A DNA stretch of 64,000 nucleotides from a virus (IMGVR_UViG_3300003320_000620:24095-88094); one strand, 5' to 3'. Numbered from the stretch's first letter, positions 15,338 through 34,283 are shown. The notes: generated by a model from the letters alone, not told the origin. Translations and numbers: made by a program.

Positions 15338-16156
15338 ATGCGTGTGTTAGTTACTGGCGGAACTGGAACTATTGGATCAGCCATTGTTAAGCATTTAATT
15401 TCAAAACAACACGAAGTAGTTATTCTAAGCCGTGATGAATATAAGCAGCATAGGCTTAGGCAAGAAATAGGTGATAGTACCAAATTTATACTGGGCGATA
15501 TCAGATCTTACGACACTCTATTAGACGCAATGGCTGGAGTAGATAAGTGCTTTCACGTAGCAGCCATGAAGCATGTTTCCCTTTGTGAAGAAAATCCCTA
15601 TGAAGCGGTCCAAACCAACGTGATTGGAACTAAAAACGTAATAAGGACAGCAAAAGAACGATTGGTGTCAAAGGTGTTGGCAATATCTACAGATAAGGCA
15701 GTCAACCCCATTTCAGTCCTTGGTGGAACCAAGTTTATTATGGAGAAATTGCTTAAGGCTGAAAAAAACGAACCACCATTCGTAACCAAATTTGCATCAA
15801 TCCGCTTTGGTAATATTTTTGATTCGCGTGGATCAGTTTTTGATGTTTGGAAACGCCAAGCGGCATTGGGTGAACCGATAACAATAACTGATTCTAGAGC
15901 TACAAGATATTTCATATCAATAGATAAGGCTGTGTTTGCTGCCTATAAAGCGATGCTTGCTTTTCAGGGTGGGGAAACCTTTATTGTTGATTGTGGTGAT
16001 CCAGTTAACATCTCTGGTTTGGCTCATAAGCTTTATCCTGAAGAAGGAAGGACATTTGTTTATTCTGGGTTAAAAGCAGGCGAGCGTCTTCATGAAGAAT
16101 TATTTTCTTCAAACGAAACACCAGAATTTGGCCCCGAAGGGTTGATGGTAGTCTAA
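15338..16156 (+). CDS. NDP-GlcNAc 4,6-dehydratase (PglF/PseB/CapD-like SDR)
   Basis: TGGTGTIG, SRDE.KQ, HVAAMKHV..CE.NP.EA..TN, STDKAVNP, RFGN..SRGSV, GERLHEEL. Confidence 0.9.
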   Translation: MRVLVTGGTGTIGSAIVKHLISKQHEVVILSRDEYKQHRLRQEIGDSTKFILGDIRSYDTLLDAMAGVDKCFHVAAMKHVSLCEENPYEAVQTNVIGTKNVIRTAKERLVSKVLAISTDKAVNPISVLGGTKFIMEKLLKAEKNEPPFVTKFASIRFGNIFDSRGSVFDVWKRQAALGEPITITDSRATRYFISIDKAVFAAYKAMLAFQGGETFIVDCGDPVNISGLAHKLYPEEGRTFVYSGLKAGERLHEELFSSNETPEFGPEGLMVV

Positions 16157-18884
16157 ATGGCCATTGAACTTGACGAGCTGGCAGGCCCAGACGGTGGTGA
16201 AGAGAGCAGGAAGCTAGCCAAGCACTGGATAGAACAGTTGTCCATGATTAAGGACAATGGCGACAATAAACGTTGGGTTAAACGTGGTGAGGATATTGAA
16301 AAGCGTTATAGGGACGAACGCAGTCGCAGTGACGAGCAAGGTCAGCGCCGCTACAACGCCCTATGGTCCAATGTTCAGATCCTTAAGCCCGCCTTGTTTG
16401 GCAAGGTGCCAATCCCAATTTGTGAGCGGCGTTTCAAAGACAAAGACCCGGTTGGCCGGGGCGCTGCTCAAATGCTTGAGCGTGCTCTAAGGAATGAGAT
16501 AGAAGTTTGTGGCTTTGGGGACTCACTAAGCAGGGCCGTTGATGACTATCTTCTTCCTGGTCGTGGTGTGGTTTGGGTACGCTATGAGCCTGAATTTTCA
16601 GAAAGTATTTCACTTCCTGTTGAGCAGGAAACTGATATTGACGCCAAAATAGGCCAAAGAGCCGTTGGCAAAAATGATGACGATGAAGATCATGATGACG
16701 GTCCTGCATCTGAGGAAGGAAAGCAAGAAGATTACAATGAAGAGGGTGAGGCTCATGAGCCACATGAACAAGCTAATGAAGAAAAGCTTCAAAGTACAGG
16801 CGATAGAATTATCAGGGAATCTACCCCTGTAGATTACATTCCCTGGAAAGACTTCATAACCTTTCCGGCTCAAGCGCGAACATGGCCTGAAGTTACCGCT
16901 ATTGGCAAGCGCGTTTACATGTCGCGCAGCCAAATGAAGAAACGGTTTGGAAAGAGGATCGGCAGTGCTATTCCCTTACAGCGTGACGACCGTGGTCCTA
17001 AAACCCAAAACGCAAGCGTTGTCGTATCATCAGACCAAGACAAAGGTATCATCTACGAAATATGGTCGATTGACCACATGGCGGTTTTTTGGGTGGCTGA
17101 GGGCTATGATTATCTTTGTGATCGCAAAGACGACCCACTAGAATTGGAAAACTTTTGGCCAGTTCCACGACCACTCTTCGCTAATTCCACCAACAACACT
17201 TTGATACCAGTCCCTGACTATATTCAGTATCAGGATCAGGCAATTCAGATTGATGAATTAACGCAACGCATTGCTATGCTGGCAAAGGCTTGTAAGGTTG
17301 CTGGTGTCTATAATGCCGCAGCCAAAGAAATTAAGCGCGTCTTTAACGAATCCTTAGAGAACGAACTCATACCAGTTGACGATTGGGCTGCTTTTGCTCA
17401 AGAGGGTCAAGGTGTGGCTGGAAATATCAGCCTAATGCCCATCAAGGATATTATGGGTGTTCTAAATGAGCTTATTACAGTTAGGAAGTTGGCTATTGAA
17501 GATATGGATCGTCTTACTGGTATCAACGATATTATGCGTGGCACTAGTGACGCGCGTGAAACTTTGGGTGGGGTGCGACTTAAACAAAATTCAACAGGCA
17601 CTAGAATTACTGCACGACAAAATGAAGTAGCTAGGTTTGCTAGAGACATAGTTCGTATTATGGCGGACATCATGTGTCGTCATTTCAGTCCTCAATCGCT
17701 AATTGAGGCCTCAGGTGCCCTTTACGAAGAAGGGCTTGGGCCTGAAGATATGCCTGATTTGACAGAATTGCAGCCGCCAGAACAGCAGCAAATGCCGCCA
17801 CAGGGACAGAAACCGCTTGGTCTTCTGTCATCACAGGCTCAGCCAAATGTTTCCTCAGCCCCAGCCGGTTCCTAATCAGGGGCCAATGCCCCCTCAAATG
17901 CCGCCGTCTGGCCCTCCACAGGGGATGCAGCCGCCAATGGGCGGGCAGCAGCCTCTAAATGGCCAGATTTTGCCACCTCAGCAGCAGATGCCGCCTGAGA
18001 TTATGGCAAAAATGAAGGCCTTTGAGCGGATTGGCAACGCTATAGAACTACTTAGAGATGAAAAACTTCGCGGATTTCGCGTAGATATTGAAGTAGATTC
18101 TACAATTTTCCCAGATGCGGCCCAAGAGAAGGCAGATAGGACAGAATTTATCACTGCTACAACCAAATTTCTTGAGACTGCAATGCAGATGGGCTCAGTA
18201 ATGCCCGAATCTATCCCACTTTTGGGCAAAATGCTGCAATTTGGCGTTAGGGGCTACCGTGTAGGCCGTGATCTTGAGGCTTCAATTGAAGAATTCACTG
18301 ATGAAGCCATAAGAGCAGCCAAAAAGAAGCAAGAAAACGCTGCAACTGCCCAGAATCCGGACATGATTAAGGCTCAGGCCGATGCAAAGAAGGCCGAAAG
18401 CCAATCTCAGGTTGCTCAGATCAAGGCACAGGCCGATATTGAGAAGATTAAGGCTGATCGTGAGAACCAGCAGCAAGAATCGGCTGCTGAAGTTGAACGA
18501 CAACGCCTAGAAAATGAGGGTGAGAAGCAAAACGCCCAAATGGAATATATGTCTAAACAAATTGACATACAAATGAAAATGATGGAGAAGCAACTTCTTG
18601 AAATGAAGATGCAGATGGAAATGTTTAAGGCTCAGCATCAGACCAGACAGGGTCAACAGGAGATTGAGCAGCAAGACCGTGCTATGGCGCATGACGAACA
18701 AATGCAGCAGCAGCAAGCTGTGCAGCAGGAACGTCAATCTCAGCGTGACGCTCAAATGCAGGACCGACAGATGGCTATGCAGGAGCGTGATGCTATGTTC
18801 CAGGAGCGTCAGGCAAACCAAAAGATGCAGCAACAGGCTATGAAGCCCGTCCATTCCCCTAAACCAAACCCCATACAGCAGTAG
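16157..18884 (+). CDS. Portal protein, split into ORFs 16157-17875 and 17817-18884 by an apparent +1 frameshift
   Basis: Position after TerL and before scaffold; Pro/Gln-rich linker continues across the frames near 17845; second ORF carries the FRVDIEVDSTI core and a Q-rich coiled-coil tail. Confidence 0.8.
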
Positions 18885-18889
18885 CGTTC

Positions 18890-19201: not shown

Positions 19202-19203
19202 GT

Positions 19204-20412
19204 ATGTTGTTTGTGGACAAGTATAAGCCGTATTTCAGCCCCGACATGGAGGTTGGAGCTGAGCAAGATGTAGGGTTGCCAGAAGGCGCTATTGCTGAAA
19301 ATATTCAGGAACAAGGCATTCCAGAACCTGCTGATGGCCCTGGCAGTGGTCGTAGCAAGCTTCGTAAGCAGCTAGAAACCAGCGTTGCTGAAGTAAACAA
19401 GCGAACTCAAGAGAAGCCTGCGAAATATGTAAGCCGAGCACGTCAGGAGGGGACAGCTGCGCCGGAGGCTGAGGAAGAGCCAGAAGCCGAACAGGAAGGT
19501 CAGGAGCAGGAAGCGAAACCTGCTACAAACCCACCCGAGGCATGGGCAAAAGAGGCAAAAGCTGAATGGGCAAAAGTCCCTACAAATGCCCAAGCAGCCA
19601 TTCTCAAGCGTGAAGAGGATGTGGCTAAGGGCGTGCACGCCCTTCAGTCGTATTACAGGGATCTGGAAGAAGTACTGTCACCCCGCTACGAACTTTTTAA
19701 GCAGTACAACAAGACGCCTGCGCAGGCTGTAAATCAGCTGTTTGGCTGGTTCGATGCCTTAGGCGGCAACCCAGACCAAGCCTTCCCTGCGTTGATGAGG
19801 ACGTTTAACTACGACCCAAGGCGTTTGATCCCATTTATCAACCAGCTGGGTGGACAGCAGCAACAGCAGCAGCCCGAAGGTGAGCAAGAAGTACCGCCTG
19901 CCTACCTACAATACATCAACCAGCTGGAACAGCGCGTTGCTGGCCTGACCGATGCTGTCTCAAAGAAAATAGGCGGCCTCGAAAATATGTTTGCTCAGCA
20001 GAATCAGGCCAGGGTTCAGGAGACTCTAGATGTGTGGTCAGCCAATAAGCCACACTTTGAAAAAGTTCGTGTTATGATGGGCCATCTGCTGGAGTCTGGT
20101 CAGGTGCCACCACTGCCAAATGGCGCTGCTGATCTAGACAAGGCATATGATATGGCTTTGTGGGCGCTTCCTGAAGTCAGACAGCAAGTAATGGCTGACA
20201 TAGAGGCTAAGCGTGCAGCCGAACTGAAGGCTAAGCAGGATGCTGAGCGTAAAGCACAGAAAGAAGCTGCTGACAAAGCCCGCCGCGCCTCCGGTGGCCT
20301 TGGTCCTAGCGCCCCAGGCTCCCCAGTTAATCCAAACCAGTCACGCAGGCCACAGCGAAAGAGCGTTCGCGAATCCTTAGCTGATGCCATCGCAGAGGTG
20401 CGCGGCGAATAA
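19204..20412 (+). CDS. Capsid scaffolding protein (putative)
   Basis: Acidic/helical 402 aa upstream of the capsid gene; PPEAW.KEAK.EW and C-terminal SVRESLADA motifs. Confidence 0.7.
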   Translation: MLFVDKYKPYFSPDMEVGAEQDVGLPEGAIAENIQEQGIPEPADGPGSGRSKLRKQLETSVAEVNKRTQEKPAKYVSRARQEGTAAPEAEEEPEAEQEGQEQEAKPATNPPEAWAKEAKAEWAKVPTNAQAAILKREEDVAKGVHALQSYYRDLEEVLSPRYELFKQYNKTPAQAVNQLFGWFDALGGNPDQAFPALMRTFNYDPRRLIPFINQLGGQQQQQQPEGEQEVPPAYLQYINQLEQRVAGLTDAVSKKIGGLENMFAQQNQARVQETLDVWSANKPHFEKVRVMMGHLLESGQVPPLPNGAADLDKAYDMALWALPEVRQQVMADIEAKRAAELKAKQDAERKAQKEAADKARRASGGLGPSAPGSPVNPNQSRRPQRKSVRESLADAIAEVRGE

Positions 20413-20776: not shown

Positions 20777-23700
20777 ATGGCTTTTCCTAACCTATCAGAA
20801 ATCGTTACGACTACGCTGCGAAATCGCACAGGCGAGCTCGCAGATAATATGAGCCGTAACAACGCTGCGTTGCTTAGGCTTACTAAACGTGGTAGAAGTT
20901 GTACCTAAGGTTGCCACGTAACCCAGTGAATTCGGTGAAGGCTGAGATGCTAATACCGAGCCAAGATGCAAACGTATAGTGATTACAGTCACTAAAGGGT
21001 TGCATAAGGTGTAGAGACTAGGTAGCCCCGAAAGGGTGTTACCCACGAGCGCTGGGTGTTAGTATGGATGAAGTTCCTGGTATCTATGTTATAGAGTGTG
21101 TGCCAACAGGTAGAGTTTATGTTGGATCTTCAGTAAAGCCACTGGCTAGAATCAAGTCTCACAAAAACTTGCTTAGCAAAGGTACCCATCGTAATGTTCA
21201 TCTCCAAAGGGCTTGGGGTTTGCATGGCTCTAATTCCTTTACTTTCACGGTGGTACAACAGTGTGTTGCTGAAGAGCGCTTCAAAGTAGAACAGGAATGG
21301 ATAACGAAGCTTCAAGCTACTGGTAAAAATGGGTTTAATATAGCGTTCCCTGTTGAACAAGTTCTGCCAAGTGAAAGGATGTCACAGGTAAGCCGTACTT
21401 CCTGGAAGGACAAGAAAACCAGAAAGAATAGGCATGCAGGCATACTTACAAAATGGCAAGACGATGCCTTTAGGGAAAGAAAGCTGCGCGATGGCCTAAA
21501 GGCTAGAGAAGCTTTAGCTAAAAAGCGGTTAGACCCAGAATGGCGTGCTCGGATTAGTGAAAAGACAAGTAAAACTATGAAGGAGCGTGCCAAGACTGAA
21601 GAAGGATTAAAAGCTTTGCGTGTTGCAAGTAAGATTGCTCATATGCGCAGAGAAAATGATCCTGAATTCAAAGCAAAATGTGAAGCAGGCTTGAAGTATT
21701 CGAGTACTAACAAAGAGATAGTCCGACCAGCAGCAAATAAAGAAGCTGCTGAAGTGATGGATAAAGAGCCGTCACGGTAACAACTAAGAACCTAAAGACG
21801 TTCTCAGGTGGGCGTACGATTGTTCAAGAGCTTGTAATGGGCTCATAGTATAGTAAGAGCTTACGGCTTCAGGATACTATGATATGCTGGTGAATTCGGA
21901 GAAAACCCAATGCCCGGCCGAAAGGTGCGGAAGGGCAACCCCGAGCCAAGCAGGCAGTTTTATGCTGCCGGGCGTGTGTAACGATCATGAACCAGCCCCG
22001 GAAGGGAAGATATGATCTGTTCTGCATGGGAACATGCAGAGGCTGACAGAAATGATCAGCCCGGCTGTAAGGACAGTCAGTAACAACTAGAAATTATGCG
22101 AACAATCAAACCTTCCAATGGTATTCAGGATATCAATCCTTGAATATCAGCCCGTCGCAGGTCTTCTCTGCGGCTGAGTACCCGATCCGTCAAGCAGCGG
22201 TGGCTGTCTCTATCTCTGGCCTAGAGGAACTCCAGAACAGTGGAGAGGAAGCCATAATCGACTTGCTGGAGAGTCGGATAATGAATGCGGAAGACACCTT
22301 CGATTTGAGGGCCGCTGCGTAGTTAAAAGGACGCAGATGGAATGCTGGTGAATTCGGTGGAAACCCAATGCCCGGTCTAGAGTTGATGCGGAAGGGTAAT
22401 ACCGAGCCAAGCAAGGAACTTACAAGTTCCTGGGCGTGTGTAACGAGCATGGACCAGCCCCGGAAGGGAAGATGTGCTCTGATCTGCATGGGAACATGCA
22501 GAGGTTGGCAGAAATGACCAACCCCTTAAGTTGAAACTTAAGAGTAACAAATTGTCATGAACGGTCTTTCGCAAGGGGTGTACGGCGACGGTACTGTGGC
22601 CAACTCAGTCGGCGGCCTCCAGTTGCTTGTTTCCAGCTCCCCGACCTCAGGTGTTGTTGGCGGCATTGACCGCTCGCAGTGGTCTTTCTGGCAGAACCAA
22701 TCTTGGTCAGCCAGCACGAACGGCAGCACTACCCTCAGCTCGGCTACCATCATCCAAATGATGGATGCTCTGTGGGTTCAGCTGATCCGCGGCCGTGATT
22801 CGCCTGATCTGATCATCGCAGACAACGTCTGCTACCGCTACTACCTGAATGCCCTCCAGGCCATTCAGCGCGTTACCCAGACTTCTTCGGCTCCTGATAT
22901 GGCTGAGGCTGGCTTCCAGAGCCTCAAGTATATTACGGCCGATGTGGTGCTGGATGGTGGCTTCCAGGGATTCAGCACTGATCCGCTGCCTTCCCAGGTT
23001 TCTACTAGCTCGTCTGCTGTTGGCGGTGCGCCAAGTTCGACGATGTATTTCCTTAACGAGTCGGTGACGATTCACTAACTCATGGGGCTGTTAATCAGTA
23101 AGCGGAGGGTATGATCGTTTCTTGAGAGCTTTACACTTCAAATAAAGCTCTTCTCGATAAGCAAGGATTAAATCTCGGTCCTTGCGGTTGCTACCATCAC
23201 CTCGACCTGGAAAGTTATAGGGGTGTTGGTCAATGTGGTCACGAAGGGCTAGAACTAAATCTACCTCTTCACGTTTTACGATCACATAGGGTTGTATGCG
23301 TCGAAGGAAAGGGGCAACGCCTTGGTTGTGAATGCCCCAACAAAACTGGATACGATTCTTAGGGTTTCGCAAGTCATGTCGGTTTTGGTTCAAATGACCG
23401 CCAAATTCATCATAAAGCATCTTTATGATGGGATAGTGTGTCATGCCAATTCCAACAGCGGGGTAATAGCCCACATGGCCTTTGCGAACCTTTTTGAAGA
23501 TTCGAGCAAAGCCTTCGCCGTCAAACAAGCCAGCAACGTAACGATCATCCAAGACTCAACTCCGTCAGGGGTTAACAGAATGGCAGCGAATTCGGAGAAA
23601 ACCCGATGCCCGGCTCTAAATGAGTGCGGAAGGGCGACCCCGAGCCAAGCAAGCAGAGACAAACTGCTGGGCGTGTGTAACGAACATGTGCTGTCCTCGG

Positions 23701-24461: not shown

Positions 24462-24477
24462 AGACACCAACAAATGT

Positions 24478-24534
24478 TTTTACTCCGTTAGTGAAGCCTA
24501 TTATGTATTGGGCCTAATCACTAACGGAGTAAAA
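24478..24534 (+). promoter_or_regulatory. 17-bp hairpin occluding the RBS of the downstream endonuclease
   Basis: TTTTACTCCGTTAGTGA (24478-94) / TCACTAACGGAGTAAAA (24518-34); GGAG lies in the stem, ATG at 24541. Confidence 0.8.
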
Positions 24535-24540
24535 CTTACA

Positions 24541-25740: not shown

Positions 25741-26412
25741 ATGGCTCAGCCTGTCTTCTATCAAACCGTAAATAACGTGGGCGTAGACCCTACTGTCTAC
25801 TACGCCGTTTCGGCGTCTGTGACGCCTGAATACCCCGCACCACCGTTTCTTGTTGGTACCCGTGCCTTCGGAAGTGATGGTTCTGAGTTTGTCTTCGTTC
25901 AAGCTTCTACTACCATTAACCCTACTGACTTTGTAATGCTTAATATGGGTTCTACTGGTGGTGGTTCCTATCAGGCAAACTCCATAACCAATACGAACGT
26001 AGTAAGTTCTTTGGGGGTTGGACTTGCCTCTACCGGCCTTGTTCTGCGTCAATCAGTGACGTACATCCCTGCAGGTGCGTACTTTTGGGCGTGCACGAAA
26101 GGCCAATATCTGCCTGCTACTACCTCTGCTGGCTTGGCCAGCAACGCTGGTGGTGTTGCTCTCTATACGTCGGCCACTGCCGGTGTGCTAACTTCGGTCA
26201 CAACCAGCTCTTCTACAGCAGCTGCTCTTGCAGGCATCATCTGCATCAACTCACTGACGGTTAGCATTCCGTCATCTATTGTACCCGGTGCTGGTGCTAC
26301 AGCGTCCAATGGCTACACGGTTGGCCCAGTTGTCAACCTTAACAGCCCCCGAACCATAGTGCTGACGTCCTTGACGTTTGCTACTCTGTCCTTACCTGTG
26401 TTTTCGTTCTAA
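25741..26412 (+). CDS. Capsid decoration/minor head protein (putative)
   Basis: Follows the capsid locus; GTRAFGSDGSEFVFVQA and AYFW motifs; very S/T/A-rich. Confidence 0.65.
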   Translation: MAQPVFYQTVNNVGVDPTVYYAVSASVTPEYPAPPFLVGTRAFGSDGSEFVFVQASTTINPTDFVMLNMGSTGGGSYQANSITNTNVVSSLGVGLASTGLVLRQSVTYIPAGAYFWACTKGQYLPATTSAGLASNAGGVALYTSATAGVLTSVTTSSSTAAALAGIICINSLTVSIPSSIVPGAGATASNGYTVGPVVNLNSPRTIVLTSLTFATLSLPVFSF

Positions 26413-26421
26413 ACACGACGA

Positions 26422-26459
26422 AGGGAAGGGAGAAATCCCTTCCCTCTAACAAGAGGGAA
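26422..26459 (+). promoter_or_regulatory. Two mutually exclusive hairpins in the intergenic gap
   Basis: AGGGAAGGGA-GAAA-TCCCTTCCCT versus TTCCCTCT-AACA-AGAGGGAA. Confidence 0.5.
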
Positions 26460-26498: not shown

Positions 26499-27431
26499 AT
26501 GGTTGCTGAAGTACCAAATCTTTATGCTGGTGAGTCGGCAAATCTTCCTCCAATAACCGTTTATGATGAAACTGGTGAAGATCCAGTTAAGCATCCAATA
26601 AAATTTAAGCTGAAAAGGCCAGATGGAGCTGATGGTGTTGAGAGGGATCAAACGCATGATGCTGCAAGTCACATGCGTTATGCAGCCACGCTCGGCTTAC
26701 CAGAACTAACCAAGCGTCAAGTTCCACGGTTAGGAAGGGCTGTAATTGTTGGAGGTGGCCCTTCCATAAAAGGTGAGATTGAAACAATACGATCTTTAGC
26801 TGCCGATAAGAACAATGCTGTTTTTGCAGTAAATTGGACGCACACGTGGTTGTTACAAAACGGCATAACGCCTAGGGGATGCGTCTTTTTTGAAATAGAC
26901 GCAGAGCCTGACACTGTTCTGGAATCGGCTCATCCAGATGTTACCTATTTCATCTGTTCCCACTGTCACGAAAAAACATTCGACATGCTTGCAGGAAAAA
27001 AGCGTGTCTTATGGCACTCACCACCAAATTCTGATCCTGAAAGGGTGGTCGCTGAGGAACTGTTTCAAAGTTCTGAGCATGTAGGTGGAGGGATCAGCAC
27101 CTTCACACGCACAATGTCCATTGCTCTGTACCTCGGGTACAGGCATTTTGACCTTTTTGGTTGTGACAGTAGCTTTCCTGAAGAAGAGGGAACTCATGTT
27201 GACGGCTACCAGACTGTTATGGATGCAAAAGTGGATGGGATGTTTGTTTACGCTAGGTCCCTCACCACTGGGCAGGTAAGACGTTTTAGAACTTTGGGGT
27301 ATCTAGCTCTTCAGGCAGAAGAGTTCAAAATCTATTGTGAGCAGAACCATCAACACTTTTCATTAAGAGTCTATGGGGATACCTTGCTTCGTTATATTCA
27401 CAAAGAAACTTACCCAGATCAATATGAGTGA
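26499..27431 (+). CDS. Maf/DUF115-family nonulosonate glycosyltransferase-like protein 1
   Basis: AVIVGGGPSI, AVNWTH.WL, S.C, GG.ST...A.YLGYR.F.LFGCDSSF. Confidence 0.75.
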   Translation: MVAEVPNLYAGESANLPPITVYDETGEDPVKHPIKFKLKRPDGADGVERDQTHDAASHMRYAATLGLPELTKRQVPRLGRAVIVGGGPSIKGEIETIRSLAADKNNAVFAVNWTHTWLLQNGITPRGCVFFEIDAEPDTVLESAHPDVTYFICSHCHEKTFDMLAGKKRVLWHSPPNSDPERVVAEELFQSSEHVGGGISTFTRTMSIALYLGYRHFDLFGCDSSFPEEEGTHVDGYQTVMDAKVDGMFVYARSLTTGQVRRFRTLGYLALQAEEFKIYCEQNHQHFSLRVYGDTLLRYIHKETYPDQYE

Positions 27432-28248
27432 AGTTCAGCCTGTAAGATTCTTTAAGATAAATGCAGCATCCAAATTACCAGACGATATATTTGACAATCT
27501 GGTTGCTGCATCAAAACTTCCAATTTTGCATCTTAGGCAATTTCCCGAACACTCAGGAAGGGCTGTAATTGTTGGCGGTGCCCCCAGCGTTGAAAAATAT
27601 TATCCACGCATTTGGCAGCTTATGGCCAACAAGAAGAAAAGCACGCTCTTCTCAATAAATTGCATGCACCGTTGGCTTGTTGAGCGTAATCTAAGGCCCA
27701 ATATCCATGTTGTCTTTGAAGAGGATATTGATCCTACTGTTGTGATAGGGAAGCCGTGCCATAAGACAGCTTACTACATAAGCTCACACTGTCCTCCAAA
27801 GCTTTTTGACTACTTCAAGGGGCACAAAACCGTACTTTGGCATTTCTATGCTGAGGAGCTTAAGTACCAGTCAGCCATAGCTGCCTTATTTCCAAGTGAG
27901 CCGATGATTGCTGGTGGCTACACCACGCTTTTTCGCGCCATAAACATAGCTATTGTGCTGGGCTACAGGAAATTTGATCTTTTTGGAGTTGATAGTTCCT
28001 TTGAAAATGATGATAATCAGCACATAGAGGGATACCCTACAAAGCCAAGCAACGTAGGTTTGGCTGATGTGTGGTGGGGCGAGCGTAAGTTTAGAACTAC
28101 TGGCGCGCTTGCGTTTCAGGCCGAGATGATTCGGCGCTTTTGTAAAGAAAACAGAGGTAAAATTCAATTCAGCGTATATGGCAGTGGATTGCTGCCGTAC
28201 ATGCTCGAAACTGAACCAAAGGAGGTTCAAAGTGAATCTAGCAAGTAA
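27424..28248 (+). CDS. Maf/DUF115-family nonulosonate glycosyltransferase-like protein 2
   Basis: AVIVGGAPSV, SINCMH.WL, SHCPP, GG.TT..RAI.IA..LGYRKF.LFGVDSSF. Confidence 0.75.
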   Translation: MSEVQPVRFFKINAASKLPDDIFDNLVAASKLPILHLRQFPEHSGRAVIVGGAPSVEKYYPRIWQLMANKKKSTLFSINCMHRWLVERNLRPNIHVVFEEDIDPTVVIGKPCHKTAYYISSHCPPKLFDYFKGHKTVLWHFYAEELKYQSAIAALFPSEPMIAGGYTTLFRAINIAIVLGYRKFDLFGVDSSFENDDNQHIEGYPTKPSNVGLADVWWGERKFRTTGALAFQAEMIRRFCKENRGKIQFSVYGSGLLPYMLETEPKEVQSESSK

Positions 28249-28627
28249 CCTTATGGGCTTCGGCATGCCGCCGTTGCTGGCTCAGGAAATTGGGACCGTA
28301 GGCTCCCTAACCATTACTGCAGCTGGCACTTCGTATACCGCATCTACCAAAATTGGTGCGAACCAGTATGTCGTAAGCTGCAGTAATGGTGACAGCACCA
28401 AATCTGTCGGCTTGCCGACAATTGGTGGTGACAGTGGCGCATCGCCTGCTGATGACTTTTGGATCAACAACGCAGGTACCGATTCTTTCGTTCTGCGTGC
28501 CTCAACTGGTGTTCTGCTCAGTGCAGGTGGCACTTCCGGTGACAGCAAGATTGTTATTGGCCCAGGCAGCACAATTCTTATGATGCCGGTGTCCTCTACA
28601 CTTTGGATGGGTTGCAAAGGCGGCTAA
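28232..28627 (+). CDS. Small S/T/G-rich virion-type protein
   Basis: GTG start with AGGAGG RBS; LMG.GMPPLLA..IG N-terminus, beta-rich. Confidence 0.6.
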   Translation: MNLASNLMGFGMPPLLAQEIGTVGSLTITAAGTSYTASTKIGANQYVVSCSNGDSTKSVGLPTIGGDSGASPADDFWINNAGTDSFVLRASTGVLLSAGGTSGDSKIVIGPGSTILMMPVSSTLWMGCKGG

Positions 28628-28645
28628 GAGCTTGCAGGCGGTGGG

Positions 28646-29536
28646 GTGTGCGTGCTTAAGTTCCTTCACTCCAGTCAAACAGCCCAGTGGCGATCTTACC
28701 TATTCAGATTGCCGCCTGGGCTGTTAGACATTCACTTCTACCCTGAAATGGTGATGCCCTATGAGAAGGCCGGAATGGGTCAGGGCATGCTCGCTGTCAT
28801 AGATCAGGGCAGAGATTTCTTAATTCAGCCTTTTTTGCAGCTAAATAATGGCGATGGAAACCTTCGCCATCCGTACAATTTTGGCGGACCTATAGCCACA
28901 GAAGAGTTTGAGCTTAAGAAAGTAAACGTAAATTCAATCTCTACTTTCAACCCATTTCTTTGGGTAAGACAACAACAGCTTGTCAAGCACAGAGCTGTAC
29001 ACATAAAGAACGTTGTTTGGATTGATCTAACAAAGCCCTTAGATTTAAGGCAGACAACAAGGCATTCAGTTGAAAAGGCTGAGGCGTCTGGAGTCACTGT
29101 AGAATTGGTTGAACCAACCAGCGAAAACATCGAGGTTTTCTCACGTCTTTACGTCGAACATATGCAAGCAGTGGATGCTGCAGAGCATTTTAGGTTTCCT
29201 AAGGTGTGGTTTGAGGCTTTTTTCAGCAGTCTAGGTAAGTCAATGTCATCTTTACTGTTTGCAAAGCATAAGGATGAAGTTGTAGGGGCCTGCATTCTGT
29301 TGCATGACGACAACACCTGTTACTACCACTTCGCTGTCAGCAAAAGAACCCCTGTAGGCATTGCCGCACGTATGGTTGTCAGTGCAGTTGGTTTTGCTAA
29401 GGAAAAAAATCACTGCAGGCGTTTGCATCTAGGCGGCGGGGTTGAACCAACAGACGGTCTCTACAGGTTCAAAGCTGGATTCTCTGACCTGAGGGCGCCT
29501 GTCTTCAGACATGAGTGCAAAAGAAATGTCAATTGA
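28646..29536 (+). CDS. FemAB-like GNAT acyltransferase
   Basis: R..R.S..KA...GV, YYHF, LHLGGG, GLYRFKAGF. Confidence 0.8.
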   Translation: MCVLKFLHSSQTAQWRSYLFRLPPGLLDIHFYPEMVMPYEKAGMGQGMLAVIDQGRDFLIQPFLQLNNGDGNLRHPYNFGGPIATEEFELKKVNVNSISTFNPFLWVRQQQLVKHRAVHIKNVVWIDLTKPLDLRQTTRHSVEKAEASGVTVELVEPTSENIEVFSRLYVEHMQAVDAAEHFRFPKVWFEAFFSSLGKSMSSLLFAKHKDEVVGACILLHDDNTCYYHFAVSKRTPVGIAARMVVSAVGFAKEKNHCRRLHLGGGVEPTDGLYRFKAGFSDLRAPVFRHECKRNVN

Positions 29537-30341
29537 AATCATCAGCGAAGCAGGTTTGAACCATCTAGGTAAATTGGATATTGCCAAACAGATGGTAGTG
29601 GCTGCTAAAGCAGCAGGCTCAGATATAGTAAAGTTCCAGACTTATTTAGCTAATAACATCTGCCATCCTGAAGATAGAAACTTCAAACTGCTTTGTGACC
29701 TCGCCCTATCAAGGGCAGAAACTATTCAATTGGCTAAATTCTGCGAAGGCACTGACATAGAATTTATGTCAACCCCAGGGGATGTAGATAGCCTTAAGTT
29801 TCTGACGCAGGAAGTTGGGGTAAAAAGGATAAAGATAGGTTCTGATGACCTGACGTTCACACCTTTGCTTGTGGCAGCATCTGACAGCGGCCTTCCAATA
29901 ATTCTCAGTACAGGAATGGCCAATATTGAAGAGATTGGGGGGGCGATTGCCGTTATTGGTGGGGTGGAGCTGACGCTTTTACACTGTGTCAGCCTCTACC
30001 CCTGCCATTATTCTTTGGCCAATCTCAATGCAATTGACACACTACGTCAATTTGAGCTTCCTGTTGGCTATTCAGACCATGTACCAGGGTTCTGGGCTTG
30101 TGTTGCCGCAGTTTCTAAAGGCGTCACAGTCATAGAGAAACATTTCAAGCTGCGAAATGTGATTGGTTGTGTTGACGAGGTAGTTTCAATAAACGAACTT
30201 GAGCTAATGAACATGATCAATCATATAAGAATGACCGAAGAAATGCTTGGAACTGGTAACAAAGAACCTTCTCCTGAGGAGGTCTTAAATATAAACAAGT
30301 TGCGTAAGCAGGCTGACGGGAAAAGAGGTATTCAGAAATGA
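29526..30341 (+). CDS. neuB: Nonulosonate synthase (NeuB/LegI family), no C-terminal SAF domain
   Basis: IISEAGLNHLG, VKFQTY, FMSTP.D, KIGS.D, ILSTGMA, LLHCVS.YP, GYSDH, IEKHF. Confidence 0.95.
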   Translation: MSIEIISEAGLNHLGKLDIAKQMVVAAKAAGSDIVKFQTYLANNICHPEDRNFKLLCDLALSRAETIQLAKFCEGTDIEFMSTPGDVDSLKFLTQEVGVKRIKIGSDDLTFTPLLVAASDSGLPIILSTGMANIEEIGGAIAVIGGVELTLLHCVSLYPCHYSLANLNAIDTLRQFELPVGYSDHVPGFWACVAAVSKGVTVIEKHFKLRNVIGCVDEVVSINELELMNMINHIRMTEEMLGTGNKEPSPEEVLNINKLRKQADGKRGIQK

Positions 30342-30970
30342 CGGTTATGGGTTTGATCCCTGCACGCTATGGGTCTCAAAGGATTCCACGCAAAAACATC
30401 GCTGACCTTGGCGGTATTCCGTTAATCCAGTGGACAATTAATGCTGCTAAAGCAAGTGGTATCTTTGATGTCTTAGCAATTAGCACTGACGACAGTGAAG
30501 TTGCTGAAATTGCGAAGCTAAACAACTGCCTGCTCATAGAACGGCCAAAGGAACTGGCTAGAGCTGAAACTGAGATGCTGCCAGTTGTCAAACATGCTAG
30601 AAAAGCTGTTCCTTTGGCTGAAGCAATAGTGCTTCTTCAGCCTACTTCGCCATTTAGAACAGCAGAAGATGTAAAGCTTTCCTACCAACAACTAAAAACC
30701 TATAAGGCAGATTCAATAGTGTCTGTTGTGTCTGCGCCTCAGGCTTTAGCCTTTGAGGTAGGCCACGCCCAAAGGCTCCGTGAAGCTAAGAACATTGTGG
30801 TGCCAAACGGCGCCCTCTACCTGATAACCACAGAACATCTGGATTCTGGCGGCGATTGGTATGATGGCTATGCCTATGCGTATGTAATGCCAAAGGAACG
30901 TTCAATTGATATTGACGTTCATTTCGATCTAGAAATGGCTAGATTGATGTTGGCACAGAGGGCTGCATGA
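30338..30970 (+). CDS. neuA: CMP-nonulosonate synthetase (NeuA/LegF family)
   Basis: IPAR.GS.RIPRKN, STD..E, RP.ELA, LLQPTSPFR, NGALY, SIDID...D. Confidence 0.95.
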   Translation: MTVMGLIPARYGSQRIPRKNIADLGGIPLIQWTINAAKASGIFDVLAISTDDSEVAEIAKLNNCLLIERPKELARAETEMLPVVKHARKAVPLAEAIVLLQPTSPFRTAEDVKLSYQQLKTYKADSIVSVVSAPQALAFEVGHAQRLREAKNIVVPNGALYLITTEHLDSGGDWYDGYAYAYVMPKERSIDIDVHFDLEMARLMLAQRAA

Positions 30971-31512
30971 GAGTTCTTGTAGCTTGTGAATTTAGTGGAA
31001 GAGTTAGAGATGCTTTTATAGCAAGAGGACATGAAGCCGTATCATGTGACTTACTACCTTCAGAATCTGAAGGCCCGCATTACCAGTGTGATGTAAGAGA
31101 CGTTTTAGATGAGAAATGGGATTTGATGATTTGTCATCCACCATGCACTTATTTGGCTGTTTCGGGAGCGAGGTGGTTTAAGTTTAGGCAAGATGAGCAA
31201 TGTCGGGCTCTGGACTTTGTGAAGTTGTTACTGACTGCAAAAGTTGAAAAAATTGCCCTAGAAAACCCAATATCAATTATCTCTACAAGGATAAGAAAGC
31301 CAGATCAAATAGTACATCCGTGGATGTTTGGGCATGGTGAAACTAAAGCGACTTGCCTTTGGTTGAAGAATTTACCCTTGTTAAGGCCGACAAAAGTAGT
31401 TTCCGGCAGAGAACAAAAAGTTCATAGGATGCCCCCAAGTAAAGAACGGTGGAAGGATCGTTCAAGAACGTATGCTGGAATAGCTGAAGCTATGAGCATT
31501 CAATGGGGATAG
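30967..31512 (+). CDS. Short DNA cytosine-methyltransferase-like protein
   Basis: VLVACE.SG.VR.AF, SCDL, HPPCT, ENP, QP..FGH.E.K.T.LWL, RS.T..GIA.AM. Confidence 0.7.
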   Translation: MRVLVACEFSGRVRDAFIARGHEAVSCDLLPSESEGPHYQCDVRDVLDEKWDLMICHPPCTYLAVSGARWFKFRQDEQCRALDFVKLLLTAKVEKIALENPISIISTRIRKPDQIVHPWMFGHGETKATCLWLKNLPLLRPTKVVSGREQKVHRMPPSKERWKDRSRTYAGIAEAMSIQWG

Positions 31513-31513
31513 C

Positions 31514-32650
31514 ATGAGCGTTGAGAGCGTAGTAAAGACAATAAGCAGTGTCACCTTGGGGCCGAAAGGCCACCATGATCCTTCTTTTGGCGAACTTGAA
31601 AGCGACTATGTTACCCGTTGTCTAAAGGCAAATGGACAGGGTGACTTTTGGCGCCTTAACCTAGAAAAGAAAATTGGTAATTATTGCCAAGTGCCTTTTG
31701 TTGTTCCAACAAATTCAGGAACAGCAGCCCTGCATGTTGGATTAGCAGCTGCAGGTGTAAAGCCTAACGAGGAAGTGCTTGTTCCAAGCCTTACTTTTGT
31801 TGGTACGGCAAACGCTGTTTGCTATGTGGGCGCTATTCCTCATTTTATTGACTGTCTGCTAGTTCTTAGCGGGTATACATTAAGGAAATACCTAGAAAAA
31901 AACACAAAGCCAACTGAGGATGGTAGAGGACGGTTGAATCCTACAACAAATAGGGTAATATCAGCGGTCATAGCTGTTGATCTTTTGGGTTTTCCAGCAG
32001 AATTAAACGAGCTTGAGGAAGTAGCTGAGGACTTTGGCCTTTGTTTGATTGAAGATGCAGCCCAAGCCTTCGGCTCATCTATTGGTGACCGCAAGTGCGG
32101 TAGCTTTGGGAAAGCTGCTATTTTAAGTTTCAATAGTAATAAGATTGTAACTGGACATGGTGGTGGTGCTCTACTGACCAAGGACGAATCTATAGCTGCT
32201 AGGGCCAGGGCCTTATCCAACACAGCACGAACTGACCACCCCTGGCGCATAGAACACGTAGAACTAGCCTTCAATTACAGAATGTCTTCATTAACTGCTG
32301 CTTTGATTTGTGCTCAAATTGACCGGATTGATTCTTTTCTTGAGGCAAAGAAAATTATACTGGAAAAGTATGTAAACGCCTTAGTACATGAGAACGACGT
32401 TTCAGTTCTACGGTATGCCAACTCAATCTATAAGCCGAACTACTGGCTAGCCACAATCCTATCAAATTCAAGAAGCGAGTTGCTCAACTCCTTGCATAAG
32501 AAAGGAATCAAGGCTAGGGCACTTTTCACGCCGCTGCACAGTCTCCCTGCTTTTGATGGTTTTCCTCATGAAGAGGATATGTGTGGTACCAAGTTTTGCT
32601 ATAAGAACTACGTGTGCTTACCTTCTGGTGTATCAATAGCATGGCAATAG
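31514..32650 (+). CDS. legC: PLP-dependent sugar aminotransferase (DegT/LegC family)
   Basis: NSGTAALH, PSLTFV.TANA, IEDAAQA.GS, SFN.NKI.T..GGG, FNYRM, NYWL. Confidence 0.88.
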   Translation: MSVESVVKTISSVTLGPKGHHDPSFGELESDYVTRCLKANGQGDFWRLNLEKKIGNYCQVPFVVPTNSGTAALHVGLAAAGVKPNEEVLVPSLTFVGTANAVCYVGAIPHFIDCLLVLSGYTLRKYLEKNTKPTEDGRGRLNPTTNRVISAVIAVDLLGFPAELNELEEVAEDFGLCLIEDAAQAFGSSIGDRKCGSFGKAAILSFNSNKIVTGHGGGALLTKDESIAARARALSNTARTDHPWRIEHVELAFNYRMSSLTAALICAQIDRIDSFLEAKKIILEKYVNALVHENDVSVLRYANSIYKPNYWLATILSNSRSELLNSLHKKGIKARALFTPLHSLPAFDGFPHEEDMCGTKFCYKNYVCLPSGVSIAWQ

Positions 32651-33672
32651 TGGTCGTTTCCGGCAGTAGAGCAGACAAAGGGCCTCTGTCACCTGTAGTA
32701 GCTGCTCTAAGGGCTCAGTGGTTGTTTCTAGAAACAGCTTACAATGCAGACGGGCATCAATGTGCTGTTTCGTGTAGTGTTGCTATGGCTCAAGCAGCCA
32801 ATGCTTTCGACAAGCTAAAGCCAGAACTAGTCATACTTCTTGGTGACAGGTATGAAATTCTGGCTGCAGCTACAGCTGCTCATCTAATGAACATCCCAAT
32901 AGCTCATTTGAGTGGTGGGGACGTTACTGAAGGCTCACAAGACGATTCTATGCGGCATGCAATTACGAAATTGTCGCATCTTCATTTTGCTACTTGCTAT
33001 CAAAGTGCGTCTAGAATCATAGCTATGGGGGAAGAACGCTGGCGTGTTTACGACGTAGGCTGCCCTGGCATTGACGGCCTGCTAAATACCGTTTTATTGG
33101 GTCGTGAAGCCACTCTACGTCAGCTTAATCTAGCTGAGCCTTACTACCTAGTGGCTTTTCAACCAGCCACCCTGCTGCCCGATCCAGCTGACGAGGCCAG
33201 GGCTTTAGTCAAAGCCCTGAAGTTCTTTCAAACTCCATGCATTTTTACTACCCTAAACACAGACATAGGCAGCCTTGATATTGAGGACCTTTTCAAGAGC
33301 TTTTGTAAGGAAGACGGCAAAAGCCAAATCTTGTCAATGTCTAGGCAGCTTTTCCTTTCAGCTATGAAACACAGTCATTTGATGATCGGGAATTCATCAT
33401 CTGGCCTGTACGAAGCACCAACTCTACAAAAAGCTTTTGTCAATGTTGGCGTTAGACAGCAGGGTAGAACCAAGGCTAGATCAGTAATTGACTGCCCTGC
33501 TGAGACAGCAGCTATCATCAAAGCTGTGCAACGAGCGTCGACTCTAGATTGTTCAAATGTTACGAACCCCTATGGTGATGGGAACACGGCAAAACGCATT
33601 GAGACAATCATTAAGGCATTACCCGTAGATAAACAGCGCTTGTTGCATAAGAAATTAAGCTACGTTGCATGA
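32641..33672 (+). CDS. neuC: Hydrolysing NDP-sugar 2-epimerase (NeuC/LegG family)
   Basis: GSRAD, LLGDRYE, HLSGGD.TEG..DD..RHAITKLSHLHF, IGNSSSG..EAP, RQ.GR, PYGDG. Confidence 0.93.
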   Translation: MAIVVVSGSRADKGPLSPVVAALRAQWLFLETAYNADGHQCAVSCSVAMAQAANAFDKLKPELVILLGDRYEILAAATAAHLMNIPIAHLSGGDVTEGSQDDSMRHAITKLSHLHFATCYQSASRIIAMGEERWRVYDVGCPGIDGLLNTVLLGREATLRQLNLAEPYYLVAFQPATLLPDPADEARALVKALKFFQTPCIFTTLNTDIGSLDIEDLFKSFCKEDGKSQILSMSRQLFLSAMKHSHLMIGNSSSGLYEAPTLQKAFVNVGVRQQGRTKARSVIDCPAETAAIIKAVQRASTLDCSNVTNPYGDGNTAKRIETIIKALPVDKQRLLHKKLSYVA

Positions 33673-34283
33673 ACATAATTTGGGATAAGGTTCATTCTGA
33701 ACGGGAATGGGGTATCTACCCAAACGAACATCTAGTCCGTTGGGCTTGTGGCAGGTTCAAGACAGGCGCTCAGCAAAAGGTACTAGATTTAGGTTGTGGT
33801 CAGGGGTCATCTACGTTGTTTTTGGCTAGAGAAGGTTTTGACGTCTCAGCCATAGATTTTAGCCATAACGCTGTTGCGAAATGTAACAAACGCTTAAGGG
33901 CAGAAAAGCTTAAAGCTCGTGTTTTTGTTGGCGAAATGATGCTGCTACCGTTTCAGAGCGGCTATTTCGACGGAGTTGTGGACGTTGTGTCTTCGGCTCA
34001 TAATACAAAGGCACACATAGAGCTTATCTACAAGGAAGCGGCTAGGGTACTGAAGGTAAACGGCACACTGTTCTTGATTACGCCAACCAACAGTTGCTCC
34101 AGGCGCCCTTTTATGGAATATGGTACGATCAGTTTCATGGAATCTGAGGAAATAAAGCATATCCTCGAAAAGAACTTTACGAATATAAAGATTCGCCATA
34201 CATCTTACGAAATTGATGATGGTTGCGAAGTCAGGAATTGGGTTGTAACTGCTGACCGCAAGGCGGCACAAGGAGAAGGTTAA
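33669..34283 (+). CDS. Class I SAM-dependent methyltransferase
   Basis: YP.E.LVR, VLDLGCGQG, AIDFS, FDGVVD. Confidence 0.85.
   Translation: MNIIWDKVHSEREWGIYPNEHLVRWACGRFKTGAQQKVLDLGCGQGSSTLFLAREGFDVSAIDFSHNAVAKCNKRLRAEKLKARVFVGEMMLLPFQSGYFDGVVDVVSSAHNTKAHIELIYKEAARVLKVNGTLFLITPTNSCSRRPFMEYGTISFMESEEIKHILEKNFTNIKIRHTSYEIDDGCEVRNWVVTADRKAAQGEG

Follow-up and report, generated by a model that had tools for sequence, protein, structure and literature searches.

In bacteria, Maf proteins are O-glycosyltransferases that place nonulosonates on flagellin, as described for Maf-1 and Maf-2 of Shewanella (10.1101/2023.12.03.569772) and for the Maf of Clostridium botulinum (PMC11339370), and the same two studies address the roles of the accessory domains, including the flagellin specificity of the C-terminal region. 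These enzymes, like those of Magnetospirillum magneticum (PDB 5MU5) and Campylobacter (Maf/PseD/PseE), have a central PF01973 domain, are linked to CMP-nonulosonate genes, act in the cytoplasm, occur as several paralogs and are associated with methyltransferases, and in all of this the phage proteins described below appear to resemble them. A second parallel is the sps system of Bacillus subtilis, a six-enzyme, UDP-linked pathway to legionaminic acid that begins with the Polysacc_synt_2 dehydratase SpsM and functions in assembly of the spore crust (PMC7439481). Among phages, Che8 and other mycobacteriophages use enzymes of their own to glycosylate their capsid and tail proteins, as summarised in PMC12619734. 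By comparison, the phage considered here would bring a complete route to a nine-carbon acidic sugar together with transferases of the Maf type. The mycobacteriophage system of Freeman et al. 2023 reportedly relies on glycosyltransferases of ordinary GT families, takes its nucleotide sugars from the host, and is said to modify the C-termini of subunits. Giant viruses (the chloroviruses, and Mimivirus with its fibrils) also decorate their particles by means of their own sugar-nucleotide biosynthesis and transferases; they differ in infecting eukaryotes, and a literature search found no nonulosonate or Maf chemistry in them. Nor did the searchable literature yield a published account of a phage head coated through nonulosonate and Maf enzymes. 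What is new here is a pair of Maf genes flanked by genes for two predicted virion surface proteins, one with a cement fold (g25741) and the other of spike type (g28232). The best reading, one that I consider rather probable from the sequences and in the absence of any detected glycan, is that the virion, mainly its capsid, is coated with sugar by the phage's own nonulosonate system.

The window, meaning the whole stretch of DNA that was analysed, is 64,000 nt long and comes from the 88-kb genome of an uncultured phage (IMGVR_UViG_3300003320_000620:24095-88094), a genome that is 97% complete. A first-pass annotation had named nine genes for synthesis and transfer of a sugar, and profile searches found all nine at the coordinates given below, all on the plus strand. 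Their assignment to a late structural unit also holds, with TerL, portal, a split major capsid protein (MCP) gene and cement upstream and an SU10-type head-tail adaptor downstream, as does the claim that they share strand and coupling with their neighbours, which overlap by 1-4 bases or are separated by gaps of 0-18 bases; late expression itself is inferred. The same annotation had the enzyme genes alternating with structural genes. This is true of the dehydratase gene, which abuts TerL (end 15337) and portal (start 16157) with zero-base gaps, but not of the other eight, which form one block, broken only by a small structural gene (28232-28627) and an unrelated DNA-methyltransferase-like insert (30967-31512). 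The features are as follows.

13688..15337, plus strand: large terminase TerL, the start of the head module (phrog_38, 4e-92; Terminase_6N)
15338..16156, plus strand: predicted UDP-GlcNAc 4,6-dehydratase, step 1 of the pathway, Polysacc_synt_2 (PseB/PglF/CapE/SpsM) family, 272 aa (PF02719, 265 bits)
16157..18884, plus strand: portal protein, in two overlapping ORFs, 16157-17875 and 17817-18884 (phrog_12082)
19204..20412, plus strand: probable scaffolding protein, inferred only from position and E/Q/A-rich composition
20777..24461, plus strand: MCP gene in at least six pieces, split by introns and homing-endonuclease genes
25741..26412, plus strand: g25741, predicted capsid cement/decoration protein, 223 aa (fold of AF2 model)
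26421..26446, no strand assigned: GC-rich hairpin of 11 bp, just past the stop of the cement gene
26499..27431, plus strand: Maf1, predicted short Maf-type nonulosonate transferase, 310 aa (PF01973, 59.9 bits)
27373..28248, plus strand: Maf2, predicted second Maf-type transferase, divergent, 291 aa (PF01973, 50.3 bits)
28232..28627, plus strand: g28232, small spike/fibre-type beta-sandwich with N-terminal helices, 131 aa (AF2 model)
28646..29536, plus strand: GNAT-fold acyltransferase, Acetyltransf_6, candidate 4-N-acyltransferase (PF13480, 5.8e-7, a weak match)
29511..30341, plus strand: predicted nonulosonate synthase, NeuB/LegI type, 276 aa, without the C-terminal SAF domain (PF03102, 210 bits)
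30338..30970, plus strand: predicted CMP-nonulosonate synthetase (CTP_transf_3, 82 bits)
30967..31512, plus strand: DNA-methyltransferase-like insert (phrog_757, 3e-67)
31514..32650, plus strand: predicted LegC-type PLP aminotransferase (TIGR04181 LegC, 335 bits; DegT family, 229 bits)
32614..33672, plus strand: predicted hydrolysing UDP-sugar 2-epimerase, NeuC/LegG type (TIGR03568, 303 bits, above the cut-off of 236)
33669..34283, plus strand: predicted SAM-dependent methyltransferase (Methyltransf_25, 6e-19)
34283..35062, plus strand: conserved gene without assigned function at the end of the block (phrog_20268; it follows the methyltransferase gene in relative L002 as well)
35254..36225, plus strand: SU10-type head-to-tail adaptor, the downstream border of the cassette (PF24175, 3e-7; phrog_6013)

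The structural genes are partly fragmented. The two portal ORFs match phrog_12082 at 1.5e-133 (N part) and 8e-34 (C part) and are a single ORF in relative L002, whose uninterrupted MCP (343 aa) aligns to six separate segments of the window. Within the MCP region lie a match to phrog_9953 (22557-23078) and, by Rfam, a group I intron (23875-24094); GIY-YIG genes are present at 21064-21780 and 24508-25626. The product of 19204-20412 had no HMM match in the profile searches. The hairpin may possibly be an attenuator or an mRNA stabiliser, an inference only. The DNA-methyltransferase-like insert is not found at the corresponding junction in relatives L002 and L005 and is probably not part of the glycosylation system.

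Each of the six steps that lead from UDP-GlcNAc to a CMP-5,7-diamino-nonulosonate has a candidate enzyme, in agreement with the annotation's claim that the pathway is fully covered. Its assignment of the pathway to the legionaminic rather than the pseudaminic type is likewise supported by profile scores. For the aminotransferase the LegC model is the best match, although below its cut-off of 420, with PseC at 187 bits; for the synthase NeuB (TIGR03569, model positions 3-287 of 329) scores 251 bits and PseI 164, again short of the equivalog cut-off; the NeuC-type epimerase exceeds its curated cut-off; and no PseG was found in the genome. The best equivalog of the CMP-synthetase is PseF, at 111 bits and below cut-off. 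Because most of the enzymes fall below NCBIfam equivalog cut-offs and several are shortened, their activities and product remain unproven, and the exact sugar and its stereochemistry are inferred.

The dehydratase best matches in the PDB Pen (6bwc, 2e-55), PseB (2gn4, 7e-52) and PglF (5bju, 2e-42). It retains the STDK catalytic motif, with Leu in the Tyr/Met position, scores 221 against a PseB equivalog cut-off of 408, and is short by about 55 aa at the C-terminus. Its 13 closest homologs have the same Leu and a similar size (266-276 aa), the short form is kept among homologs at 51-58% identity, and contigs of 96,399 and 96,850 bp carry it together with homologs of Maf1 and the spike-like protein. 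The acyltransferase assignment is weak: 28646..29536 matched nothing in NCBIfam, PDB or PHROG searches, but it is kept in relatives L002, L005 and L014. A second small GNAT at 41943-42389 is a further candidate, and no hexapeptide-type 4-N-acetyltransferase (LegH/PglD, left-handed beta-helix) was seen among the genes scanned. The methyltransferase at the end of the series probably acts on either the sugar or its acceptor as a tailoring enzyme. The sps pathway has the same aminotransferase, acetyltransferase, synthase and CMP-transferase steps, a dehydratase gene that is likewise apart from the cluster, late expression, and a proteinaceous shell as the recipient of a sugar that makes it hydrophilic and negatively charged. 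In contrast, it is cellular, its enzymes are longer than those of the phage, and its transferase is unknown and not of Maf type; the Met of SpsM is also replaced by Leu in the phage dehydratase.

The gene on the 5' side of the Maf pair encodes a protein whose AF2 model (pLDDT 74, pTM 0.73) resembles cement and decoration chains of FCWL1 (VIA Z 11.3), T1 (10.8), Pam3 (10.7) and XM1 (9.9), with an rmsd of about 3 A over about 129 aa, as against Z below 4 for unrelated structures. Including TW1, the known cement proteins share this fold with g25741 over a range of Z 7.6-11.3, and their genes also follow that for the MCP, but they are only about 150-166 aa in length, whereas g25741 has extra segments and lies directly upstream of a Maf transferase gene. 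By its model, then, g25741 has the fold of a cement or decoration protein; its presence on the particle is inferred. Of the 72 family members, 10 match phrog_29386, 'virion structural protein', and two match PF09956 (Phage_cement_2) weakly. The cement gene follows the MCP gene here and in L002 and L016, and in every relative that spans the junction it is immediately 5' of the Maf1 ortholog. I regard g25741 as the best candidate for the acceptor of Maf1, both its role as acceptor and the pairing being inferred. Ser/Thr content has no discriminating value in this regard, because distant members of the family are rich in these residues as well (20.9% vs 24.6%).

The survey of related phages proposed with the first annotation bears out the arrangement of cement, Maf and spike genes in metagenomic relatives. 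The order MCP, cement (one or two copies), Maf1, Maf2-type (zero to three), spike (zero to two), sugar genes and adaptor is found in L002, L005, L007, L014 and shorter loci. Maf1 homologs number 143, with 52-72% identity among the 120 listed and several on contigs of 77-97 kb; the orthologs make up one clade with 100/100 support and are single-copy at each locus. Maf2 belongs to a separate clade, with zero to three copies per relative, and the spike gene invariably comes after the last Maf2-type gene. Maf2-type genes are present only where there is a spike gene, in four of four informative loci, and L002 has neither, a co-occurrence that rests on only five informative loci, which are related to one another.

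The spike-like protein g28232 (131 homologs, up to three paralogs per contig) is a candidate second acceptor, inferred to be paired with the Maf2-type enzyme. Its model (pLDDT 89) has as its top Foldseek hit the capsid spike of Pa223 (9ny6_C, 3.4e-4), yet the highest Z scores in the VIA-wide comparison belong to domains of tailspikes and baseplates (12.7, 10.7 and 9.9). The virion might thus be glycosylated at some site other than the capsid shell: on tail fibres, on the adaptor, or on g28232 itself if that protein resides on the tail. Downstream are fibre-like virion proteins rich in Ser/Thr and Gly, such as 48278-49420 with 23% S+T, and mycobacteriophages are described, in the summary given in PMC12619734, as glycosylating the tail tube in addition to the capsid. 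I give a non-shell acceptor only a small chance, since the sole match to g28232 over its full length is the capsid spike (Z 9.8), its gene lies among head genes upstream of the head-tail adaptor, and Maf1 goes with the cement gene at each of the loci, even at that of L002, where a g28232 homolog is absent.

The Maf proteins themselves are the only two products of the entire 88-kb genome with a PF01973 domain (Maf/DUF115, MAF_flag10; now named MptE-like in Pfam), and the profile check confirmed both, each above the gathering cut-off of 34.6 bits. Whereas bacterial Mafs are about 600-670 aa, the phage proteins are 291-310 aa, and their alignment to 5mu5 is confined to its central domain (residues 274-422 of the 666). 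The three-domain architecture, with an N-terminal Rossmann-like and a C-terminal helical/TPR acceptor-binding part, is missing, and the phage Mafs therefore lack the region that in bacteria confers specificity for flagellin. They also differ in that their genes lie in a head module beside those for capsid surface proteins, with no flagellin gene found in the phage, and they presumably act on a protein of the virion.

These features bear on a different destination for the sugar, the surface of the host (flagellin, pilin, S-layer or LPS/capsule), for which the head module would be merely a convenient late slot and the modification would block superinfection or keep progeny from adhering to cell debris. 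Phages do alter host receptors, every characterised Maf in the literature acts on flagellins, and the cassette is similar in composition to a horizontally acquired bacterial sugar cluster. I nonetheless judge a host target improbable. Besides the missing acceptor-binding part, no GlfM-like partner was noted, and within the block of sugar genes there is no flippase, polymerase, ligase or other hydrophobic membrane protein of the sort that LPS and capsule routes require. The strict pairing across relatives of Maf1 with cement and of Maf2-type genes with spike would not be expected of a host-directed enzyme. Finally, neither an integrase nor a resolvase was found in the 97%-complete genome, which argues against long-term conversion. 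On these grounds the annotation's preference for decoration of the virion over lysogenic conversion stands.

It is very improbable that the PF01973 proteins are instead MptE-like kinases or enzymes acting on DNA or small molecules, with the nonulosonate serving another purpose: the family does include archaeal pterin kinases, as its current name implies, the Maf1 profile does touch archaeal MptE (8sd5, E 0.06), and a DNA-methyltransferase-like gene lies within the block, but the best PDB match of that profile is the flagellin transferase Maf (5mu5, 9.5e-6), the Mafs are directly linked to the CMP-nonulosonate pathway, that insert is the one missing from L002 and L005, and I know of no nonulosonate modification of DNA. 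The margin over MptE is modest and the NCBIfam match to PseD weak (4e-4). The Mafs are encoded together with NeuB, CMP-synthetase, LegC and NeuC, whose genes are within 5 kb, and the same linkage is seen in L002 and L005. Maf1 and Maf2 are thus best described as putative nonulosonate protein O-glycosyltransferases, their transfer of sugar to Ser/Thr being inferred without activity data.

Virion glycosylation remains the best reading because of the conserved order, the ties of Maf1 to cement and of Maf2 to spike, and the absence from the searched genome of an integrase, a flagellin gene or membrane-bound glycan machinery. With a complete predicted set of enzymes for an activated sugar, and Mafs placed between cement and spike-like genes, the phage most likely coats its own head. 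Adjacency is no proof of an enzyme-substrate relationship, being partly expected by default because phage head genes are all clustered. Under this reading, six soluble, trimmed enzymes would late in infection convert host UDP-GlcNAc, by way of 4,6-dehydratase, LegC-type aminotransferase, GNAT acyltransferase, NeuC-type 2-epimerase, NeuB-type synthase and CMP-synthetase, to a CMP-activated nonulosonate, presumably a legionaminic-type 5,7-diacylamido-3,5,7,9-tetradeoxy-nonulosonate, which the methyltransferase may modify. In the cytoplasm, either ahead of head assembly or in the course of it, the two short Mafs would attach this sugar by O-linkage to Ser/Thr residues of proteins on the capsid surface. 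The likeliest acceptors would be the products of the genes that flank them, the conserved Maf1 serving the cement protein and the variable Maf2-type paralogs serving the capsid-spike-like protein. The sugar would cover the capsid with an acidic and hydrophilic layer, which could alter how the particle adheres, how stable it is or how it is recognised, though any such benefit is inferred.

A more speculative extension, which I put forward tentatively and think may well be wrong, is that the coat is modular, with one transferase for each capsid protein (Maf1 for cement, each Maf2-type paralog for one paralog of the small spike) and with methyltransferase fusions and extra glycosyltransferases diversifying the glycan from one related phage to another. 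Recognition of the acceptor by such minimal Mafs would have to reside in the catalytic domain or in the acceptor's fold. If so, evolution has given phages a sialic-acid-like surface chemistry for their particles that is programmable, needs no outside pathway and is widespread among uncultured Uroviricota. The breadth of such genes speaks for the main reading as well. Many viral Maf clusters with fusions to methyltransferase or GT2 domains are present in the Atlas, and in L007 a methyltransferase and a Maf form a single ORF of 494 aa. At the same spot L005 has additional glycan enzymes: a DUF5672 protein, an NAD-epimerase and a fusion of CmcI-type methyltransferase with GT9.

The gene identities in and around the sugar block were assigned by Pfam, NCBIfam and PHROG scans, which bore out every gene that the first-pass annotation had named. 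The window represents bases 24095-88094 of an IMG/VR phage record of 88,094 bp, judged to be 97% complete, and between roughly 6 and 51 kb its genes lie on the + strand. Those relevant here are:

13688-15337, +, TerL, directly before the dehydratase with no spacer
15338-16156, +, dehydratase (Polysacc_synt_2), 272 aa, abutting TerL and portal with no spacer
from 16157, +, portal, directly after the dehydratase
25741-26412, +, g25741, candidate capsid cement (decoration) protein
26499-27431, +, Maf1 (PF01973), first gene of the block after the capsid genes
27373-28248, +, Maf2 (PF01973)
28232-28627, +, g28232, small spike-type open reading frame, after Maf2
28646-29536, +, GNAT-fold protein (PF13480)
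29511-30341, +, NeuB (Pfam/NCBIfam)
30338-30970, +, CMP-transferase (Pfam/NCBIfam)
30967-31512, +, DNA-methyltransferase-like insert, 181 aa (phrog_757, 3e-67; no Pfam match)
31514-32650, +, LegC-like aminotransferase (NCBIfam)
32614-33672, +, NeuC (NCBIfam)
33669-34283, +, SAM methyltransferase (Pfam)
35254-36225, +, SU10-type head-to-tail adaptor, preceded by a conserved unknown gene and followed by tail and fibre genes

The sugar genes had been described as alternating with structural genes. This is true of the dehydratase gene, set between TerL and portal; the rest form a single cassette that extends from the capsid-surface genes to the adaptor. Junctions within the block either overlap, by 1-59 bases, or leave 0-18 bases between genes, and since promoter-like and terminator-like sites are in no excess over shuffled sequence, there is no evidence that the cassette is a separate transcription unit. 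The insert at 30967-31512 is missing from the CMP-synthetase/LegC junction of two related loci, L002 and L005.

Family-level scores favor a route of the legionaminic rather than the pseudaminic type. The aminotransferase scores 335 bits against the LegC model versus 187 against PseC, the synthase 251 bits against NeuB/LegI versus 164 against PseI, and the hydrolysing 2-epimerase 303 bits against the NeuC model, over the curated cut-off of 236. The genome has no PseG, the defining hydrolase of the pseudaminic route, and a strict pseudaminic-acid reading was rejected on this ground and on the lower scores of PseC and PseI relative to their Leg/Neu counterparts. The nearest PDB matches of the dehydratase are Pen, PseB, CapE and PglF (2e-55 to 2e-42). 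It keeps the S-T-D-K catalytic motif, with Leu in place of the Tyr of PseB or the Met of PglF, CapE and SpsM, a substitution common to all 13 of its closest homologs. Sequence does not distinguish retaining from inverting chemistry at C5. The acyltransferase is the weakest-supported step of the putative pathway; its candidate, the GNAT-fold protein at 28646-29536 (PF13480, 5.8e-7), has no closer match in NCBIfam, PDB or PHROGs. A second, small GNAT gene lies among the tail genes at 41943-42389 (Acetyltransf_3; phrog_4470, acyl-CoA N-acyltransferase), and its product could be the N-acetyltransferase for the sugar or might instead act on a virion protein by acetylating it.

Several of the enzymes are trimmed, among them the dehydratase, by about 55 C-terminal residues, and NeuB, by the lack of a SAF domain. 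This is not decay, because the short forms are kept in relatives. All 13 of the nearest dehydratase homologs have the short form, and two of them reside on contigs of 96,399 and 96,850 bp, sizes that recur among the homologs of Maf1 and g28232, although equal contig size is only a proxy for co-occurrence of the three genes.

To my knowledge, Mafs are the sole enzyme class known to place nine-carbon acidic sugars directly onto the Ser/Thr residues of proteins. Maf1 and Maf2 both exceed the PF01973 gathering score, in keeping with their earlier designation, and the genome has no third gene of this family. The nearest solved structure is 5mu5, the flagellin transferase Maf of M. magneticum, which a profile built from 20 Maf1 orthologs matches at 9.5e-6, compared with 0.06 for archaeal MptE. 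The alignment is confined to the central domain of 5mu5 (residues 274-422 of 666). Bacterial Mafs derive their recognition of flagellin from flanking domains or from a separate GlfM protein (PMC11339370; 10.1101/2023.12.03.569772). The phage Mafs are without these flanking parts, which fits an acceptor other than flagellin. They do not meet the three-domain architecture that is a defining feature of the bacterial family, and I would call them minimal Maf-like transferases rather than strict Maf members. Within the Maf1 family alignment, C153, H155, C156, H233 and H301 (Maf1 numbering) are invariant, and these Cys and His residues suggest that phage Maf1 proteins bind a metal.

Directly upstream of Maf1 is g25741 (223 aa), whose own sequence has no match in Pfam or PHROG. 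Searching 1.84 billion representatives with a family profile yielded 268 relatives, and 10 of the 72 family members aligned match phrog_29386, annotated as a virion structural protein. The AlphaFold2 model (pLDDT 74, pTM 0.73) matches the cement or decoration chains of capsids determined by cryo-EM: FCWL1 (Z 11.3), T1 (10.8), Pam3 (10.7), XM1 (9.9), E217/Pa193 (8.6), HFTV1 (8.4) and TW1 (7.6), with an rmsd of about 3 Å over about 129 residues; unrelated entries have Z < 4. The profile has no sequence match in PDB. Richness in Ser/Thr was dropped as evidence for an acceptor, since the entire cement family is rich in these residues and the property does not discriminate. An 11-bp GC-rich hairpin, perfectly paired and closed by a GAAA loop, occupies 26421-26446, 9 bases past the cement stop codon and 50 before Maf1; its + strand lacks a run of T. 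One possible role is to set the ratio of an abundant structural protein to the enzymes.

Directly downstream of Maf2 is g28232 (131 aa), modeled (pLDDT 89) as two N-terminal helices and a beta-sandwich, a domain also present in tailspike and baseplate proteins (Z 12.7, 10.7, 9.9). Only one structure matches the model over its full length, a capsid spike from Pseudomonas phage Pa223 (Z 9.8), which is also the top match by Foldseek (3.4e-4). Given the cement fold of g25741 and the spike-type fold of g28232, a virion surface protein is encoded on each side of the Maf pair. A 137-aa open reading frame after Maf1 in L002 was considered as a diverged spike homolog and ruled out (hhalign probability 0.1).

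Maf1 has 143 homologs, of which the 120 listed are 52-72% identical to it, several of them on contigs of 77-97 kb. The Maf profile found 17 loci, 16 of them from metagenomes and one from IMG/VR; single-protein searches of IMG/VR with Maf1, portal and LegC found no related loci. Gene order was determined by tblastn of the window's proteins against 17 fetched loci. The synteny sought in related phages is present, the order between the MCP and adaptor genes being kept: MCP, cement (1-2 copies), Maf1, Maf2-type (0-3), g28232 family (0-2), GNAT, NeuB, CMP-synthetase, LegC, NeuC, methyltransferase, unknown gene, adaptor. A maximum-likelihood tree divides the Mafs into two clades. The Maf1 clade (100/100 support) has one member per locus, each directly after the cement gene, and the last Maf2-type member at each locus is directly before the g28232 paralogs. 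L002 has only Maf1 and no g28232 homolog, and both Maf2-type and g28232 genes are present in all four other loci informative for both, a sample that is small and phylogenetically non-independent.

The chemistry of the cassette, as inferred from its genes, varies between relatives. In locus L007 a SAM methyltransferase and a Maf2-type domain are joined in a single 494-aa reading frame (5605-7086), and the ESM Atlas holds many virus-only Maf-like clusters, frequently with a methyltransferase or GT2 domain attached. The methyltransferase fusions argue that methylation and nonulosonate transfer are functionally linked. In L005 the interval between cement and Maf1 (2270-5815) contains DUF5672, an NAD-dependent epimerase/dehydratase and a 605-aa fusion of a CmcI-type O-methyltransferase with GT9. 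In the same locus the gene for the thymidylate synthase ThyX lies amid the sugar cluster (11227-11868), which also contains, at 13496-14710, a homolog of the window's protein at 36985-38115, which carries LPD23 and DUF6782/SprT-like metallopeptidase motifs, modules of large polyvalent proteins.

I judge it somewhat probable that the system glycosylates the virion, with acceptors on the capsid surface, on evidence drawn from sequence alone, no glycan having been detected. The decoration of the particle proposed in the first-pass annotation is supported to that extent and sharpened by the virion surface genes on either side of the Mafs. That Maf1 specifically serves the cement protein and Maf2 the spike is no more than a tentative suggestion, and a doubtful one; that Maf and surface-protein genes are neighbors in a head module is in part what one would expect anyway. 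The sugar might instead be directed at a target in the host. Against this, the genome encodes neither a recombinase of the tyrosine or serine type nor a flagellin, the block's proteins are all soluble, with no membrane protein among them, and the Maf profile found no Maf1 relative in 185,579 prokaryote genomes, which leaves neither a host clue nor a prophage copy.

Virion glycosylation by this phage would join two known kinds of system, the coating of virions with sugar and the chemistry of Mafs. I know of no demonstration of phage-encoded sugar-coating of virions outside some mycobacteriophages, where the sugars are ordinary. The outcome is alike there (summarised in PMC12619734), but the enzymes and sugar of the present phage differ. 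The glycosylation of flagellin with nonulosonates by Maf is alike in its working. The sps system of Bacillus subtilis is alike in the logic of its pathway and in the coating of a protein shell: a six-enzyme, UDP-linked CMP-Leg pathway is opened by a Polysacc_synt_2 dehydratase, whose gene is away from the other sps genes, and the sugar coats the spore crust (PMC7439481). No description of a phage nonulosonate or phage Maf system was found in the literature; two seeming hits came from reference lists alone. GenBank phages gave no match to Maf1, Maf2 or the cement protein and only 3 weak matches to NeuB, megablast with the whole region gave none, and no PHROGs family corresponds to Maf1, Maf2, spike, GNAT, NeuB or CMP-synthetase. 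Considered with the ESM Atlas neighbors, this suggests a theme widespread in uncultured phages and absent from cultured ones.

The phage clade carries candidate enzymes for every step of a miniaturised route to a nine-carbon acidic sugar, along with Maf-class enzymes. If the interpretation as virion glycosylation is true, then Maf chemistry reaches past flagella to viral capsids, and minimal Mafs of about 300 aa, with natural non-flagellin acceptors next door, become available for studies of acceptor recognition and for glyco-engineering. A surface property of environmental phages (charge, hydrophilicity, masking) would also come to light, one that could influence their adsorption to particles, their survival and their recognition.

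Selfish elements are unusually numerous in the structural module. The major capsid gene (20777-24461) is split into six segments or more; the intact 343-aa MCP of L002 maps to 20777-~20893, 21789-21833, 22092-22301, 22557-23057, 23811-23888 and 24127-24201. One group I intron was identified within the split gene by Rfam (23875-24094), GIY-YIG endonuclease genes are at 21064-21780 and 24508-25626, and an HNH endonuclease gene (36278-36985) directly follows that of the head-tail adaptor. The portal sequence falls into two overlapping open reading frames, each in its own frame, with the break at 17817-17875 within a Pro/Gln/Gly-rich linker. An indel from sequencing, a programmed frameshift and a genuinely split gene could each account for this; in L002 a single 712-aa frame runs through the same linker.
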